A stretch of DNA of 64,000 nt from Pseudomonadota bacterium. GTDB taxonomy: Bacteria > Pseudomonadota > Alphaproteobacteria > Caulobacterales > Maricaulaceae. Both the position numbers and the translations under genes were made by a program. Position 1 is the first letter of the stretch; the number at the start of each line of letters is the position of its first letter. The stretch covers positions 181,310-245,309 of the forward strand of contig JAYEGL010000011.1 of assembly GCA_034659015.1 (NCBI GenBank), in the 5' to 3' direction. The notes under the pieces are model-generated. The model saw only the letters and a list, made by a program, of their open reading frames with translations, was not told the DNA's origin and ran no database searches. This document shows, piece by piece, positions 1,372-35,787 of the stretch.

Positions 1372-1536
1372 GTCATCCCGGACGGATGCCCCGCGCAGGC
1401 GGGGCGTAGATCCGGGACCTATACAGCTCCGCGCGAGCCGGAAGCAGGCTCTGCCGTCGTGACAGCCATAACGAACACCGGGATTATGGGTCCCGGCCCT
1501 GCAGCCCGCCTGCGCGGGCTATTCGACCGGGATGAC
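1372..1536. repeat. 165-bp element with ~52-bp terminal inverted repeats (family A, copy 1), MITE/REP-like
   Basis: The left arm gtcatcccggacggatgccccgcgcaggcggggcgtagatccgggacctata (1372-1423) is the near reverse complement of the right arm at 1485-1536. Each arm carries an internal GC hairpin. A second copy lies at 31438-31601. Confidence 0.8.
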
Positions 1537-31309: not shown

Positions 31310-31437
31310 GGGAGAAGGCGGTTAGCGCGGAGCGGCGGGCCGATCAATCGGGAAAGGCTGATGGGGGGATGAACAAGTATCGGTTCATGGTGTGCACAGG
31401 TTGGTCGCCTTGGAACTCCATCGCCTTTTTTGGTGTT

Positions 31438-31601
31438 GTCACCCCGGACGTATGCCCGGCCTCGGGCCGGGCGGAGTTCCGGGGCCCATACTCCCGGTGC
31501 AAACCCAGTTGTTTCCGCTATCGAGCCCGCTTTCGACCTGCAGCGAGTGTATAGGTCCCGGCTCTCCGCCCCGCCTGCGCGGGGCATTCGGCCGGGATGA
31601 C
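31438..31601. repeat. 164-bp inverted-repeat element (family A, copy 2)
   Basis: The left arm gtcaccccggacgtatgcccggcctcgggccgggcggagttccggggcccata (31438-31490) is the near reverse complement of the right arm tataggtcccggctctccgccccgcctgcgcggggcattcggccgggatgac (31550-31601). It is homologous to 1372-1536. Confidence 0.8.
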
Positions 31602-31687
31602 AACGGGGCATGTGGCACATTGGGGTTTATCGAGGCCGTGGTAACGTGTCTGATACCATCAAGCTTGGGTTGCCAGAAAGGACGGGT

Positions 31688-32002
31688 ATGCCGCTCACTC
31701 GTGAATTCAGGATAATCGTCAAGGACGGGGCCGAGCGTGATCCCGAATTCAGGACGGCCCTGTATCGCGAGGCGCTGGAGGCCCTTCTGGCCGGCGACGC
31801 TGCGACCGGGAAGGCAATGCTGCGCGATTTCGTGAATGCCACGATTGGTTTCGAGCAACTCGAAGTGCGTACGGGCACGCCCCGGAAGAGCCTGATGCGA
31901 ATGCTAAGTCCGGCGGGAAACCCGGGGCTGAACAGCCTCCTTTTGGTCTTCAAGGCACTCAATGAGATCGCCGGGACCGAACCGGAAGTGCATGTGCGCT
32001 GA
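31688..32002 (+). CDS. Small HTH DNA-binding protein, antidote/HigA-like
   Basis: MPLTREFRIIVKDGAERDPEFR...KAMLRDFVNATIGFEQL...PRKSLMRMLSPAGNPGLNSLLLVFKAL resembles the roughly 100-aa addiction-module antidote-like HTH family as I remember it. I place the start at M27 of track ORF 31610..32002. Confidence 0.6.
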   Translation: MPLTREFRIIVKDGAERDPEFRTALYREALEALLAGDAATGKAMLRDFVNATIGFEQLEVRTGTPRKSLMRMLSPAGNPGLNSLLLVFKALNEIAGTEPEVHVR

Positions 32003-32137
32003 CGCGGGTTACGGCAGCGATCTGCATCCTTTCGCACCGCCACCTTTCCATCCGGCGTCACGCCCGCTATAAGCCGCGCGAATTCACGAGCCCGGCTTGT
32101 CCGGACAACCCCCGTATCTGCTTCGAGGACCTTTCCC

Positions 32138-32560
32138 ATGGCGCTGCAACGCACCTTCTCCATCATCAAGCCCGACGCCACTGCCCGCAACATCACCGGC
32201 GCCATCAACGCCAAGATCGAGGACGCCGGCCTGCGCATCATCGCCCAGAAGCGCATCCGTCTGAGCCAGGACCAGGCGGAAGGCTTCTACGCTGTCCACA
32301 AGGAGCGTCCCTTCTTCAACGACCTGGTGTCCTTCATGGTCTCCGGCCCGGTCGTCGTGCAGGTGCTGGAAGGCGAGGACGCCATCGCGAAGTATCGCGA
32401 AGTGATGGGTGCCACCAATCCGGCCGACGCCGCAGAGGGCACGATCCGCAAGGAATTCGCCGAGTCGATCGAAGCCAATTCCGTGCACGGGTCCGACGCT
32501 CCGGAAACCGCCGCCCAGGAAATCCCCTTCTTCTTCTCCGACGACGAGATCGTCGGCTGA
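32138..32560 (+). CDS. ndk: Nucleoside-diphosphate kinase
   Basis: [14 protein letters not shown] start and the active-site region NSVHGSD. 140 aa. Confidence 0.97.
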
Positions 32561-32588
32561 GCCGAAGCGGCATGGCCAGAATGACAAA

Positions 32589-32617
32589 GGGCCCGGCGGT
32601 TGCGCCGGGCCCTTTTT
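32589..32617 (+). terminator. Rho-independent terminator of ndk
   Basis: gggcccggcg-gttg-cgccgggccc followed by ttttt. Confidence 0.85.
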
Positions 32618-32730
32618 CGTTATCAAGCTACTTTTCTCGCGATCAAAAATTGTTCTTGAACGAGGGTAGCTGCTCTGTGAACTTGTGGTAAGCGTTGGCG
32701 ACCATAAAGAGTAGAAAATGGAGCAAATTA

Positions 32731-33798
32731 ATGCGCCGCAGCAGTAACATTCTTACCGAATTTCTGAAGGCGCAGGACGATTTGGTAATCCAGTCTGCCG
32801 ACCTTCCATTGGGAACTTTAGCGGAAATGGTAGGTAGCGGAGCCATTGACCTTGAACCCGGTTTTCAAAGAAGAGAGCGTTGGAAAATTGAGAAACAATC
32901 GGCGTTGATTGAGTCTTTTCTTCTAAATGTTCCTGTCCCTCCAATTTATCTTTCTGAGCAAAATGATGGAACGTACACTGCTATTGATGGAAAGCAGCGC
33001 TTAAAATCTATTTCTGACTACATACTTGGAAAATTTGCTCTCAAAGACTTGGAAAAGCTCGAGTCTGCTCGCGGGTTGAAGTTTTTAGATTTGCCAAGTG
33101 AAATACAAAATTCATTGAAGCTCAGGCCGTATTTGCGTGTCGTTACTTTGCTTCGACAATCCGATCCTTTGCTAAAATATGAGGTCTTTTTGCGTTTGAA
33201 TAGAGGGGGCGAGAGTCTTAATCCTCAGGAAATAAGAAATGTCGCCTTCAGAGGGCGTCTGAATAATTTAATTTATAAACTTTCAGAGAATAAGTTTTTA
33301 CGAAGGCAATTAAAAATAAAGAATTTTACTGAGTCCGCTTATAGGCAGATGTCTGATGCTGAATACGTGCTAAGATTTCTTACGTTGAGAAGCTATTGGT
33401 CAGATTTTAGTGGCTCACTTTCGCGTGAAATGGATAGATTTATGGAGCAAAATAGAAATTGCGACGACGAATTTATCACTAGGTGCGAAAAGGACTTTGA
33501 GTCGGCAATCGGTCGTTGCGAGCAATTGTGGGGAGGGGCGGCTTTTCGGCGGCCAGATGGTGAAAATTGGCGCGATCAAACGCTTGCCGGAATGTATGAC
33601 GCGCAAATGATAGCTTGTTCGGAGATTACTGAGGACCAGTTTAAGCGGGCAATCAGGAAAAAAGAGAGCATAACTCAGAAAACGCGTAGTTTGTTCGATG
33701 ATGGCGAGTTCGATCAGGCGGTTAGAACTGGTACGAACACACCAAGTAGAATTCAGCTGAGAGTCGAACGGATGATGGGAATGTTGGCTGAGGTCTAA
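32731..33798 (+). CDS. DUF262 (ParB/Srx-like) domain protein, stand-alone
   Basis: Motifs PGFQRRERW (nt 32857-32883), DGKQR (32986-33000) and FLRLNRGGESL (33187-33219) match the DUF262 pattern. The ATG at 32731 has GGAG 7 nt upstream. The track start at 32695 is a TTG with no clear SD. Confidence 0.85.
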   Translation: MRRSSNILTEFLKAQDDLVIQSADLPLGTLAEMVGSGAIDLEPGFQRRERWKIEKQSALIESFLLNVPVPPIYLSEQNDGTYTAIDGKQRLKSISDYILGKFALKDLEKLESARGLKFLDLPSEIQNSLKLRPYLRVVTLLRQSDPLLKYEVFLRLNRGGESLNPQEIRNVAFRGRLNNLIYKLSENKFLRRQLKIKNFTESAYRQMSDAEYVLRFLTLRSYWSDFSGSLSREMDRFMEQNRNCDDEFITRCEKDFESAIGRCEQLWGGAAFRRPDGENWRDQTLAGMYDAQMIACSEITEDQFKRAIRKKESITQKTRSLFDDGEFDQAVRTGTNTPSRIQLRVERMMGMLAEV

Positions 33799-33799
33799 T

Positions 33800-34708
33800 T
33801 TGCTTTCTTCCTATTACACAACATTGATCGCCCTTAAGGGCGCGCTGTCTGATCCATTGCTAGTAGGAGGCGTCCCTAGTTCTGGTGCTCTGGGTCAAGA
33901 CGCATCGGCCAGCTTAAGGCTTGGTGGAGCGGTCGTGGTTTATTCGATGCTCGAGGATCATATCGATAAGGCCGTCGACCGCTTGGTGGATTTTGTGTCC
34001 GCTAGAGGTTTTGACGCTCGTCTTTTCCCGGAAAAATTGCAAAAATTCTTGATTGTTGATGCTATCAGTTCGATGGCGAACCAAATGCGGTTTCAAGAAA
34101 GTGGCGAGAATGTAGCGAGCGCAATGACAAATATCCCAAAGTTGAGTTTGGTAACTGAAACTCCGTCAGAATTCCGTTTGCATGGTCTGCGAAAGCAGGG
34201 GTCAAATGTTGTCTTTAAAGATGTGACGGGCGCATTCGGAGCGTTTGGCGTCAAAAATCTTTTTGAAGGAAAGTTGAAAGACATATTGAACGATATTGGT
34301 GGCTCTCGACCAAGTCCAAAGCAAGATTTCATTACACTTTCAAAGACAAGAAATAGCTCGGCGCACAAAGCATACCATAGTATATCTATAAGTAATCTGC
34401 AAAATCATATAGATTCTGCTATTCTTTTGGGTGTTGCTATTGATTGTTTAATTCGGTTTATGAGTGCGGCGATAAAATTTTACAATAACGAGTCCGATTT
34501 TGATGCAGAGATGAGTTTTCCCGCTAAGCAATACAGGTTTTTGGACGAAGTGGGTGTCGGAAAATTTGTGGAGTCCGTCTCGGGAGCAAAACGGGCTAGC
34601 AAAAAATATTCGACGCTAGAGGCTGGGCTTCGGGGCTGTATGAGCCGCGCTTCTGATCTGCCCATCGTAGTGCGGAGAGCTCAGTTTCCAATTGGAGTGG
34701 CGTATTAG
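33800..34708 (+). CDS. HEPN-like protein with R-x4-H motif (MAE_28990/MAE_18760-like by motif layout)
   Basis: RNSSAH at aa 184-189 (nt 34349-34366) sits in a predicted helical context, and an early helix AVVVYSMLEDHIDKAV is placed like the first HEPN helix. The TTG start has GAGG 6 nt upstream and lies 1 nt after the upstream stop. The family assignment is an inference. Confidence 0.7.
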   Translation: MLSSYYTTLIALKGALSDPLLVGGVPSSGALGQDASASLRLGGAVVVYSMLEDHIDKAVDRLVDFVSARGFDARLFPEKLQKFLIVDAISSMANQMRFQESGENVASAMTNIPKLSLVTETPSEFRLHGLRKQGSNVVFKDVTGAFGAFGVKNLFEGKLKDILNDIGGSRPSPKQDFITLSKTRNSSAHKAYHSISISNLQNHIDSAILLGVAIDCLIRFMSAAIKFYNNESDFDAEMSFPAKQYRFLDEVGVGKFVESVSGAKRASKKYSTLEAGLRGCMSRASDLPIVVRRAQFPIGVAY

Positions 34709-34773
34709 CCACTGATTGGACGTGAGCGAAAGTGCAGAGCGTAAAAAATAGGTACATGTGGTAGTCTTCGCTC

Positions 34774-35787
34774 ATGTCCGCGCTCCACGATCTCATCCGG
34801 CGCCTGCCCAAGGCCGAGCTTCACATGCATCTGGAAGGTTCGCTGGAGCCGGAGATGATGTTCGAGCTGGCGCAGCGAAACGGCATCGCCATCCCCTACG
34901 ACACGCCGGAAGCGGTGCGGGCGGCGTATGATTTCTCCAGCCTGCAGGACTTCCTCGACATCTATTATGCCGGGATGAGCGTGCTGGTCACCGAGCGCGA
35001 TTTCTTCGACCTGACCCGCGCCTATCTCGACCGGTGCGCCGAAGACAATGTCCGCCATGTCGAGGTCTTCTTCGATCCCCAGGCCCATACCGAGCGGGGC
35101 ATCGCTTTCGAGACCGTGCTCAACGGCATCACGGCGGCGCTGGACGCGGGCGAGGACGAGCTGGGCATCACGTCCAAACTCATCCTGTGCTTCCTGCGGC
35201 ACCTGTCCGAGGAGGCCGCGCGCGACGTGTTCGAACTGGCGCGCCCGCATCTCAACGATATCGACGGGGTGGGGCTGGATTCCTCCGAGCTGGGCCATCC
35301 GCCCTCCAAATTCGCCCGCGTCTTCCACCTGGCCGGCGAACTGGGCCTGAAACGCGTCGCTCATGCCGGCGAGGAGGGGCCGCCGGACTATGTCCGCGAA
35401 GCGCTCGACATCCTGGAGATCGACCGGCTCGATCACGGCAATCGCGCGCTGGAGGATCACCACCTGGTCGAGCGCCTGGCCGCCGAACAGATGACGCTGA
35501 CCGTCTGCCCGCTCTCCAATCTGCGCCTGTGCGGGGTGGCGCGGCTGGAGGATCACCCCCTCAAGCGCATGCTGGAGCTGGGCCTGCGCGCCACGGTGAA
35601 CTCGGACGATCCGGCCTATTTCGGCGGCTATGTGAACGAGAATTATATCCGCATCGCCGACGCCCTGGGCCTGACGGAAGACGAGATCGTCACCCTGGCG
35701 CGCAACAGTTTCCGCGGCGCCTTCCTGCCGCCCCAGCTGATCGAGCGCCACCTGCACGAGATCGACGCCGTCGTGGAAAAGGTCTGA
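34774..35787 (+). CDS. add: Adenosine deaminase
   Basis: LPKAELHMHLEGS metal-binding start, plus HAGE and SDDPAYFG motifs. Confidence 0.95.
   Translation: MSALHDLIRRLPKAELHMHLEGSLEPEMMFELAQRNGIAIPYDTPEAVRAAYDFSSLQDFLDIYYAGMSVLVTERDFFDLTRAYLDRCAEDNVRHVEVFFDPQAHTERGIAFETVLNGITAALDAGEDELGITSKLILCFLRHLSEEAARDVFELARPHLNDIDGVGLDSSELGHPPSKFARVFHLAGELGLKRVAHAGEEGPPDYVREALDILEIDRLDHGNRALEDHHLVERLAAEQMTLTVCPLSNLRLCGVARLEDHPLKRMLELGLRATVNSDDPAYFGGYVNENYIRIADALGLTEDEIVTLARNSFRGAFLPPQLIERHLHEIDAVVEKV

Follow-up and report, generated by a model that had tools for sequence, protein, structure and literature searches.

An AT-rich islet between ndk and add encodes a putative long-HEPN variant of the DUF262-HEPN defence module

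Between the housekeeping genes ndk and add of a Maricaulaceae contig lies a short AT-rich islet that carries a DUF262 gene followed by a HEPN gene. Does this pair represent an undescribed antiphage system, as the first-pass annotation of the locus had proposed, or does it belong to a class of defence module that already bears a name? Judged from sequence comparison, the locus is in our view no new system but a long-HEPN variant of the known DUF262-HEPN defence module. In the following, we establish the islet as an insertion, characterize its two genes, compare them with described systems and weigh what the pair might do.

The islet stands out by its composition and by its absence from close relatives. 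Across the 64-kb window (i.e. the whole stretch of DNA that was analysed), the GC content of 1-kb bins falls below 0.62 in the islet bins only. At a resolution of 300 nt, it ranges from 0.37 to 0.52 between ~32650 and ~34750 and from 0.61 to 0.75 on either side; the islet as a whole has 44% GC versus about 66–67% in its flanks. Two related metagenomic contigs, L085 (flanks 97–98% identical to those of the window) and L092 (a syntenic contig of 239 kb, 86–92% identical), lack the islet and carry ndk followed directly by add. Both empty sites place the breakpoints identically, between 32618 and 32619 and between 34772 and 34773, and show that 72–74 bp of ancestral ndk-add intergenic DNA were replaced by the islet. 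The locus is a horizontally acquired, strain-variable insertion between two housekeeping genes, with its foreign origin supported by the presence/absence comparison with L085 and L092. The first-pass annotation had called foreign DNA at 32621–34770, and the breakpoints bear this out to within 2–3 nt. The islet and its borders comprise:

32619–34772, no strand: AT-rich inserted islet of 2154 bp (empty sites in L085 and L092; GC content)
32586–32615, plus strand: intrinsic terminator of ndk, a context landmark (13-bp GC-rich stem and T-run)
34709–34773, plus strand: right-hand junction, followed by the ATG of add at 34774

The empty sites retain the ndk terminator, which directly abuts the left junction, and the L085 sequence is identical up to 32618; a search against Rfam returned sub-threshold matches only, all on this terminator. 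At the right-hand junction, the ancestral ribosome binding site of add (GGAGGT) was replaced, no terminator was found between 34709 and 34773, and a hairpin over the add start codon was no better than in shuffled sequences. As to mobility signatures, the islet showed no flanking direct repeats, target-site duplication, tRNA or integrase. Searches of the locus for tandem repeats or RNA-antitoxin-like arrays, and of the region upstream of gene 1 for a sigma-70-like promoter, were likewise negative. The islet holds two co-oriented genes and no third one. As initially annotated, the two are 1 nt apart, gene 1 ending with the TAA at 33796–98 and gene 2 starting at 33800.

The upstream gene and its landmarks are:

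32731–33798, plus strand: gene 1, a 355-aa DUF262/ParB-fold protein, NsnA-like and PD-T4-2_A-like (PF03235, PADLOC, AF2/Foldseek)
32720–32723, plus strand: GGAG Shine-Dalgarno sequence, preceding the ATG of gene 1 by 7 nt (read from the sequence)
32863–32883, plus strand: DUF262 motif I, FQRRERW (QRxxxW), F45–W51 invariant in A1
32986–33000, plus strand: DUF262 motif II, DGKQR (DGxQR), D86–R90 invariant in A1
33187–33201, plus strand: DUF262 motif III, FLRLN (FxxxN), F153–N157 invariant in A1

Here, A1 denotes an alignment of 30 diverse gene-1 homologues, and the motif definitions follow PMC12065111. Gene 1 could start at a TTG (32695) or, better, at an ATG (32731), which we prefer because its homologues measure 352–356 aa. 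Its identification as a DUF262/ParB-like protein, suggested at first reading, is upheld by a match to Pfam family PF03235 (E 2.8e-21) and by its fold: the AF2 model (pLDDT 84.8) retrieved BrxU, ParB-CDP, Noc, KorB and SspE in Foldseek, with BrxU at the top and CDP-bound ParB as the other best match. An N-terminal, NTP-binding ParB-DUF262 domain is followed by a C-terminal helical domain (ParBDB-like, DNA-binding-type). DGxQR is the predicted nucleotide-phosphate binding centre (PMC12065111, PMC10952713); like the other two predicted nucleotide-binding motifs, it is intact in gene 1, which encodes a DUF262 protein of the ParB/Srx fold. It has 2618 homologues, the best of them 65–67% identical. 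Among PADLOC profiles, NsnA (E 2.5e-71, 239 bits, profile positions 42–381 of 385) outscores PD-T4-2_A (PDLC04027; E 2.8e-34, 116.8 bits, positions 43–356 of 363), and there is a weak match to REase_II (9.4e-13). Pfam detected neither a DUF1524 His-Me/HNH domain nor another nuclease domain in gene 1 at E ≤ 1.

For the downstream gene, the corresponding features read:

33800–34708, plus strand: gene 2, a 302-aa HEPN (RiboL-PSP-like) protein with a TTG start (family homology; PF18735/PF18737 at family level)
33790–33793, plus strand: GAGG Shine-Dalgarno sequence for gene 2, within the end of gene 1 (translational coupling)
33953–33955, plus strand: codon for E52, which is acidic, invariant in A2 and A3 and located on the first long HEPN-region helix
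34349–34366, plus strand: RNSSAH, the R184-x4-H189 HEPN signature; R184, A188 and H189 invariant in A2 and A3
34517–34705, plus strand: C-terminal beta-rich extension of ~60 aa, residues ~240–302 (AF2, A2 pattern)

A2 is an alignment of 52 partners of the gene 2 family and A3 a second alignment of that family, used for AF2 modelling. In a word-index homology search, gene 2 retrieved only itself, yet its reading as an orphan was rejected, since the proteins encoded beside gene-1 homologues are clearly homologous to it. Pairwise matches to such downstream partners reached 2e-41 and 4e-33, jackhmmer recognized 82 of 83 partners as homologous, and an exhaustive phmmer search yielded 167 cluster representatives (best identity 34%, alignments beginning at residue 3–5). 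Assignment to a HEPN family, which the first-pass annotation had derived from the R-x4-H signature, likewise holds, albeit with a nuance: the expected profile match exists for the family, whereas gene 2 itself stays below the PF18735 cut-off (E 0.016, 15.5 bits versus 28.4). PF18735 (HEPN_RiboL-PSP) is matched by 37 of the 52 partners (best 3.8e-10) and PF18737 by 10. A full-length Methylocystis homologue, 28% identical to gene 2 (E 4e-33), reaches 34.1 bits with PF18735 and thereby exceeds the cut-off.

Residues E52, N136, R184, A188 and H189 are invariant across the 52 aligned partners. The consensus around the signature, R-[HN]-x-x-A-H, is found at the corresponding site of all full-length partners, and RNSSAH aligns with RHAFAH/RTTLAH of plasmid-encoded PF18735 proteins. 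In the AF2 model built from A3 (pLDDT 72.6), gene 2 forms a long-helix bundle, its helical HEPN region being followed by the C-terminal beta-rich domain (strands 246–252, 255–260 and 268–270, helix 273–281; pLDDT 71–89). This extension bears the pattern RF..G..E..RA.K...V.RD..G.P..W, conserved in A2. A Foldseek search of the PDB with the gene 2 model returned nothing significant, HEPN entries 7ae6_B and 4nqf_A appearing at E 2.5–2.9, and profile searches of both gene families against PDB sequences gave no matches. Together, gene 2 appears to belong, as a divergent member, to a HEPN family of ~300-aa proteins whose E...R-x4-H signature is invariant and putatively catalytic. All four motifs named at the outset (FQRRERW, DGKQR, LNRGG and RNSSAH) are present at the locus.

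Do the two genes belong together? At the 79 informative loci, defined by gene-1 homologues of 46–66% identity and drawn from many phyla, a gene 2 homologue lies directly downstream of the gene-1 homologue without exception, in line with the co-occurrence that the first-pass annotation had asked for. The gap between them is mostly −4 to +12 nt (80 related loci). One gene 2 partner is frameshifted (L079) and two are N-terminally shortened, and gene 1 alone is missing from no locus. Divergence of the two proteins is correlated (Mantel r 0.76, p 0.001), and gene 2, with a median pairwise identity of 24% against 50% for gene 1, changes at roughly double the rate of gene 1. As here, the pair is richer in AT than its host at 75 of the 76 related loci, with a median GC difference of −12.6 points. 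A conserved third gene was not found, no family occurring in more than two of 90 neighbouring ORFs, and neither was a conserved ABC-ATPase neighbour. Gene 1 and gene 2 form a translationally coupled, always adjacent and co-diverging unit across many phyla. Counted in GTDB species representatives, the clade with the ~300-aa HEPN protein has 79 or more members, which are spread over more than eight phyla.

As for genomic context, some neighbours at related loci are defence genes (HamB, HEC-05, type II R-M, MADS). Often, the pair stands alone among housekeeping genes, outside defence islands. Viral contigs contributed just three matches.

The first-pass annotation had held that this pairing matches no named system, and here it has to be corrected. 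PD-T4-2 from E. coli ECOR65 was annotated as "DUF262, HEPN", with HHpred matches to PF03235 for component A and to PF18735/PF18737 for component B; the cloned system confers protection from T4 on E. coli, and T4 plaques form again once ECOR65 is deleted for it (Vassallo et al. 2022). It is the experimentally validated representative of the DUF262-plus-RiboL-PSP-HEPN class. Besides, RiboL-PSP-HEPN had been listed as an "operon with ParB" in a computational study (Anantharaman et al. 2013). The label "undescribed" no longer stands, as an existing system name largely applies at the level of architecture.

For the comparison with PD-T4-2, we relied on PADLOC profiles, HHpred tables from the literature and look-alike pairs on plasmids. 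Shared are two adjacent, co-oriented genes with DUF262 first and HEPN second, without DUF1524 or a third gene, and a component A that belongs to PF03235, with the PD-T4-2_A profile matched. As for component B, the Pfam HEPN families assigned to PD-T4-2B, PF18735 and PF18737, are matched by relatives of gene 2, gene 2 itself staying below the PF18735 cut-off. On the other hand, gene 2 has 302 aa and an extra C-terminal beta-rich domain, whereas we infer a length of roughly 165–180 aa for PD-T4-2B (both PD-T4-2 ORFs together span 1540 bp, and the HHpred coordinates of B extend up to residue 163; Vassallo et al. 2022). Further differences are that gene 1 is closer to the NsnA than to the PD-T4-2_A profile and that the islet resides in a high-GC alphaproteobacterial host. 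PADLOC profiles recognized one half of the pair: gene 1 is matched by NsnA and PD-T4-2_A, but gene 2 by no profile at E ≤ 1, and the PD-T4-2_B profile matches neither gene 2 nor any of the 52 relatives (E ≤ 0.01). This latter profile is narrow, as it also misses two plasmid-borne PF18735 partners of DUF262 genes.

Plasmid-borne DUF262-HEPN pairs (E. coli IncX1 p573-5; A. baumannii pAB1) resemble the islet in gene order and coupling. Their A proteins are 27–29% identical to gene 1 over 83–96% of the gene 1 length, and their B proteins match PF18735 above the cut-off; with 180 and 237 aa, however, they leave no room for the C-terminal extension of gene 2. Aligning A2 to the single plasmid HEPN proteins with hhalign gave a marginal alignment, confined to the region around the R-x4-H helix. 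These related plasmid pairs adjoin plasmid replication and toxin-antitoxin genes. The ParB–RiboL-PSP-HEPN and ParB–MAE_28990-HEPN operons of Anantharaman et al. (2013) link the same two families with a conserved R-x4-H, yet they are a computational table entry in which the ~300-aa subfamily and its C-terminal domain were not delineated.

Other known systems share individual features with the islet. Like Menshen (NsnABC), it encodes a protein of NsnA architecture, i.e. ParB-DUF262 plus a helical C-terminal domain of ParBDB type, and a polymorphic, fast-evolving effector partner. However, gene 1 is followed by the HEPN gene and then add instead of an NsnB ABC-ATPase, and the inPIN-nuclease effector NsnC is absent, the HEPN effector being coupled directly to the DUF262 gene. 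With NsnB and NsnC both lacking, membership in Menshen was rejected. With GmrSD, BrxU and SspE, gene 1 shares the DUF262 ParB-fold NTPase domain with its DGxQR motif, BrxU being the best structural match, and presumably also the logic of a DUF262 sensor and a linked nuclease executor. In those proteins, the DUF1524 HNH domain is the nuclease and DUF262 the NTPase or sensor (PMC12065111, PMC10952713). The executor here would differ in being a separate HEPN (RNase-type) protein rather than a fused DUF1524 HNH DNase, and as neither gene 1 nor gene 2 matches DUF1524 in Pfam (E ≤ 1), GmrSD membership was rejected as well. HEPN-MNT toxin-antitoxin systems were dismissed, since the partner is DUF262 and Pfam reported no nucleotidyltransferase (NTP_transf) match, and so was Dazbog, neither protein matching DzbA or DzbB in PADLOC at E ≤ 1.

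What, then, might the pair do? In our judgement, the islet is probably an antiphage module of the DUF262-plus-RiboL-PSP-HEPN class that was acquired horizontally and is self-contained with its two genes; in it, the DUF262 sensor would license the HEPN RNase. The DUF262 domain would bind and hydrolyse NTP and sense phage DNA, with gene 1 being proposed as the sensor or switch because of its analogy to GmrSD, BrxU and SspE. Upon detection of phage DNA or a replication intermediate, the gene 1 protein would license the HEPN protein. The latter, probably as a dimer, would cleave RNA (tRNA, mRNA or rRNA), leading to translation arrest and abortion of the infection. Phage counter-selection may act on the surface formed by the HEPN partner, which evolves fast, and by the additional domain at its C terminus. 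Every one of these steps rests on analogy, given that we found no characterization of the PD-T4-2 mechanism itself in the literature searched. Several results count against the reading as a PD-T4-2-like module: the PD-T4-2_B profile misses gene 2 and its relatives, the PF18735 match of gene 2 is sub-threshold, its model has no significant PDB match, gene 1 prefers the NsnA profile, and a promoter-like site upstream of gene 1 was looked for in vain. Still, the sensor-plus-RNase-effector model already put forward in the first-pass annotation seems a reasonable one. It is doubtful, though conceivable, that the ~300-aa-HEPN clade goes further and forms a mechanistically distinct subtype, wherein a ParB-type, NTP-gated clamp or switch licenses the RNase through the C-terminal beta-domain of the HEPN protein. 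If true, this would couple ParB-like nucleotide switching to RNA cleavage, without demonstrated precedent in any system.

Among the alternatives, we regard a toxin-antitoxin-like arrangement as unlikely, albeit the least so. Here, a constitutively active HEPN toxin would be restrained by stoichiometric binding of the DUF262 protein and freed on infection through host shut-off or through degradation or sequestration of its partner, NTP or DNA sensing not being the trigger. The strong ATG/GGAG start of the upstream gene and the weak TTG of the downstream one fit the expression ratios of an antitoxin preceding its toxin, the tight coupling of the genes and their joint divergence hint at a physical complex, and partner-neutralized HEPN toxins are known (e.g. 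HepT-MNT, PrrC-EcoprrI; DARNA preprint). Yet the invariance of the three NTP-binding motifs over 30 diverse homologues points to an enzymatic or switch role rather than to a passive inhibitor, a two-domain "antitoxin" of 355 aa would be unusual, and none of the loci has lost gene 1 alone, even though partners have been frameshifted or shortened. Quite improbable, in our view, is a dual-nuclease, type IV-restriction-like system whose DUF262 protein cleaves DNA while the HEPN protein serves as an accessory RNase or a non-catalytic partner. Anantharaman et al. (2013) treated ParB domains beside HEPN as endoDNases of R-M-like systems, and both the top fold match of gene 1, the type IV enzyme BrxU, and its weak REase_II match would agree with this. 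Against it stand the role of DUF1524, and not DUF262, as the nuclease of GmrSD, BrxU and SspE, the lack of a detected nuclease domain in gene 1, and the invariant putative catalytic residues of the HEPN protein, which make a passive accessory partner unlikely.

A role outside defence, be it as a selfish addiction module that stabilizes the islet or as a stress-responsive RNase, strikes us as very improbable. While the frequent solitary position of the pair among housekeeping genes, the plasmid replication and toxin-antitoxin genes beside related pairs and the paucity of matches in viral contigs could be read in its favour, PD-T4-2 has the same architecture and defends E. coli against T4, in its native strain as well as from a clone, and faster effector evolution together with a sporadic, AT-rich distribution is typical of defence genes. 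Finally, the best PADLOC match of gene 1 might hint at a degenerate Menshen system, that is, an orphan NsnA that lost NsnB and NsnC and came to lie beside an unrelated gene. The conserved two-gene architecture effectively refutes this reading: all 79 informative loci have a HEPN partner and none a conserved ABC-ATPase neighbour. Besides, plasmid DUF262 proteins with a PF18735 HEPN partner likewise obtain a higher score for NsnA than for PD-T4-2_A, which shows that the NsnA profile is simply broad.

In summary, an antiphage module with a DUF262 sensor and a HEPN effector remains our preferred reading of the islet. The locus opens no new category of immunity. If functional, however, it would extend the DUF262-HEPN (PD-T4-2-like) defence class by a widespread subtype that goes uncalled at present and is probably under-counted in defence-system censuses because PADLOC profiles recognize its A component only. 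As a compact module of 2.15 kb with a clean empty-site comparison, the islet offers a convenient entry point into the control of a HEPN RNase by a ParB-fold NTPase, and its strictly conserved putative catalytic residues and fast-evolving effector add to its value in this respect.

The AT-rich islet between ndk and add is real, and it lies where the first-pass annotation had placed it. GC content is 0.37-0.52 inside (~32650-34750) against 0.61-0.75 around it (300-nt windows), and at 1-kb resolution the islet bins are the only ones below 0.62 GC in the whole 64-kb window. In two relatives, ndk is followed directly by add without an islet: the metagenomic contig L085 (identical Ndk protein, 97-98% nucleotide identity) and the 239-kb contig L092, which is fully syntenic over ABC-F/ndk/add/LysE/S41 peptidase at 86-92% identity. 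Since similarity to the window ends at 32618|32619 and resumes at 34772|34773 in both of them, the islet comprises 32619-34772 (2154 bp); it replaced 72-74 bp of ancestral spacer. Its absence from these relatives bears out the proposed foreign origin, and we regard it as a horizontally acquired defence-type module. Neither flanking direct repeats nor a tRNA, integrase or tandem repeats were found at the islet, an Rfam search of it returned no family above threshold, and the metagenome contig L084 (2879 bp) matches window positions 32195-35073 with 100% identity. The features in and next to the islet are as follows:

32586-32615, ndk terminator, immediately followed by the islet
32731-33798, gene 1 (DUF262/ParB-like), 355 aa from the preferred ATG; first possible start, TTG at 32695
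33800-34708, gene 2 (HEPN family), 302 aa from a TTG preceded by GAGG, 1 nt beyond the gene 1 stop

The two genes are thus co-oriented and 1 nt apart, as had been read from the sequence, and the motifs quoted for them (FQRRERW, DGKQR and LNRGG; RNSSAH at R184-H189) are all present. The right end of the islet lies one base ahead of the add start codon, and the insertion deprived add of its former ribosome-binding site (GGAGGT in L085). Because this site was replaced and no terminator was found between gene 2 and add (window 34709-34779), add may rely on read-through from the islet. Of note, an inverted repeat (34718-34730/34767-34779) spans the add start codon, its fold being no better than that of shuffled sequences (z -0.99).

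On the other side of ndk, we observed a second strain-variable segment (31370-32063), which is not AT-rich and is absent from L092 and another related contig, L086 (breakpoints 31369|32064). It contains one ORF:

31610-32002, + strand, 130-aa ORF

This ORF matches TIGR02684 ('addiction module antidote protein') weakly and below threshold (E 5e-5, 23.5 bits, cut-off 53.7), and no toxin partner is evident. Besides, a ~46-nt GC-rich element occurs at window positions 31552-31597 and 1376-1421 (reverse strand), L085:65-109 and L086:304-348, blastn matches between the relatives and the two window positions being 83-87% identical. This could be a short dispersed repeat; when 3 mismatches were allowed, a search for the exact pattern returned one copy only (31557-31601).

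For gene 1, ATG 32731 is the better start because of a GGAG at the right spacing and a 355-aa length common to homologues. The expected Pfam match was obtained (GmrSD_N/DUF262, 2.8e-21), and among PADLOC profiles the protein matched NsnA of Menshen (2.5e-71, 239 bits, profile positions 42-381 of 385) and PD-T4-2_A (2.8e-34, positions 43-356 of 363). There are 2618 homologues at E<1e-10, the closest being 355-aa proteins of 65-67% identity whose organism-named members are all Alphaproteobacteria. The three defined DUF262 motifs, QRxxxW, DGxQR and FxxxN (PMC12065111), are invariant in an alignment of 30 sequences. The top PDB match of the AlphaFold2 model (pLDDT 84.8) was BrxU, a GmrSD-family type IV enzyme (E 1.2e-3, probability 1.0), next to several CDP/CTPgammaS-bound ParB structures, Noc, KorB, PadC, SspE and sulfiredoxin, which confirms a ParB/Srx nucleotide-binding fold.

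That gene 2 encodes a HEPN protein held at the family level, while its own match to Pfam HEPN_RiboL-PSP (residues 155-218) stayed sub-threshold (E 0.016), and neither PADLOC nor NCBIfam gave a match. In a 52-sequence alignment, E52, N136, R184, A188 and H189 are invariant, R40, G42 and D215 nearly so, and the consensus R-[HN]-x-x-A-H is a canonical HEPN signature. PF18735 is matched by 37/52 members (best 3.8e-10) and PF18737 by 10/52; the Methylocystis homologue exceeds the PF18735 cut-off (34.1 versus 28.4 bits), and several relatives are named RiboL-PSP-HEPN by their sources. The AF2 model (pLDDT 72.6, pTM 0.72) shows long helices and a C-terminal beta-rich domain (residues 246-302); Foldseek against PDB returned nothing significant, with HEPN entries only at E 2.5-2.9. 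A word-indexed search of 5.8 billion proteins had made gene 2 look like an orphan, which was a sensitivity artefact: an exhaustive phmmer search of 1.84 billion cluster representatives found 167 relatives at E<=1e-3, nearly all ~300 aa (best identity 34%). Fast-evolving defence effectors can appear orphan in this word-indexed search. Next to the gene-1 homologues of Aquibium and Methylocystis, the gene immediately downstream matches gene 2 over near full length (33% identity, E 2e-41, and 28%, E 4e-33, respectively).

The expectation that both families co-occur elsewhere proved correct. When GTDB species, each represented by a single genome, were scanned with the gene 1 alignment, 116 relatives were obtained; the 80 loci retained span Alpha-, Beta- and Gammaproteobacteria, Actinomycetota, Bacteroidota, Cyanobacteria, Verrucomicrobiota, Planctomycetota, Saccharibacteria and others. 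Immediately downstream, 79/79 informative loci carry a gene-2 homologue (the remaining locus is interrupted by the end of its contig), usually with a gap of -4 to +12 nt. Across 78 loci, median pairwise identity is 50% for gene 1 and 24% for gene 2, the latter being less conserved in 99.9% of comparisons; by this sequence measure, the HEPN partner diverges at roughly double the rate. The distance matrices nevertheless correlate (Mantel r 0.76, p 0.001), so the two genes are inherited together. GC of the pair is below that of its flanks in 75/76 loci (median difference -12.6 points). Neighbours include some defence genes (HamB, HEC-05, type II R-M, MADS) and many housekeeping genes, yet among 90 immediate neighbours (45 loci) each Pfam or PADLOC family turns up at most twice, so a conserved third component is absent. 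Only three relatives were found among 2.9 million viral contigs. In some loci the HEPN partner is altered, being frameshifted near residue ~139 in a cyanobacterial MAG (L079:7117-8200) and lacking ~38 N-terminal residues in L007 and L072, which could be pseudogenisation or assembly errors.

The central claim of novelty, on the other hand, fails, as the architecture is already described and experimentally validated elsewhere: PD-T4-2 from ECOR65 is a two-ORF, 1540-bp 'DUF262, HEPN' system (Vassallo et al. 2022, PMC9519451). Its components match PF03235 (A, 99.7%) and PF18735 and PF18737 (B, 97.8% and 96.9%) in HHpred; it shields E. coli K-12 from T4, and T4 again forms plaques on ECOR65 once the system is deleted there (PMC9519451). 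An earlier computational survey had already listed RiboL-PSP-HEPN domains in an operon with ParB (Anantharaman et al. 2013). It has been grouped with GmrSD, Dazbog, SspE and Menshen as DUF262-centred systems (Li et al. 2025, PMC12065111). The islet pair differs from PD-T4-2 in its ~300-aa HEPN partner with an additional C-terminal domain, in that gene 2 escapes the PD-T4-2_B profile, and in the higher score of gene 1 on NsnA than on PD-T4-2_A. Plasmids, too, carry PF18735 HEPN genes next to a more distant DUF262 gene (<32% identity), with a replication gene plus hns/hha, or a recombinase plus a RelE/HTH TA pair, as neighbours in these two examples:

L090:2917-4557, E. coli IncX1 plasmid p573-5, DUF262 365 aa and HEPN 180 aa
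L091:2935-4785, A. baumannii pAB1, DUF262 376 aa and HEPN 237 aa

Since PD-T4-2_B detects neither of these short partners, the profile is narrow and plasmid pairs are probably under-called; NsnA, in turn, is broad, because the plasmid DUF262 proteins likewise score higher on it than on PD-T4-2_A. Going by the profile matches alone, neither a PD-T4-2 nor a Menshen call would probably be made by PADLOC at this locus. We rejected Menshen (no NsnB ATPase, no NsnC), a GmrSD-like system (no DUF1524), Dazbog (no profile match) and HEPN-MNT. The islet pair is best filed as a candidate long-HEPN variant of the PD-T4-2-like DUF262/RiboL-PSP-HEPN class.

The literature searched holds no description of the PD-T4-2 mechanism. 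The DUF262 domain of GmrSD, BrxU and SspE is an NTP-binding and NTP-hydrolysing sensor of modified DNA that switches on a linked nuclease. HEPN domains typically form dimers and act as metal-independent RNases, staying inactive until triggered (examples summarised in the DARNA preprint). One alternative is a TA-like arrangement in which the DUF262 protein neutralises the HEPN protein; another is a dual-nuclease system, and neither DUF1524 nor any other nuclease domain was detected in gene 1. The invariance of both catalytic signatures, together with translational coupling and co-divergence, favours a complex of the two proteins in which each activity counts. In the most economical model, the gene 1 protein would be a DNA/NTP sensor-switch and the gene 2 protein an RNase effector, whose action would lead to translation arrest and probably abortive infection.
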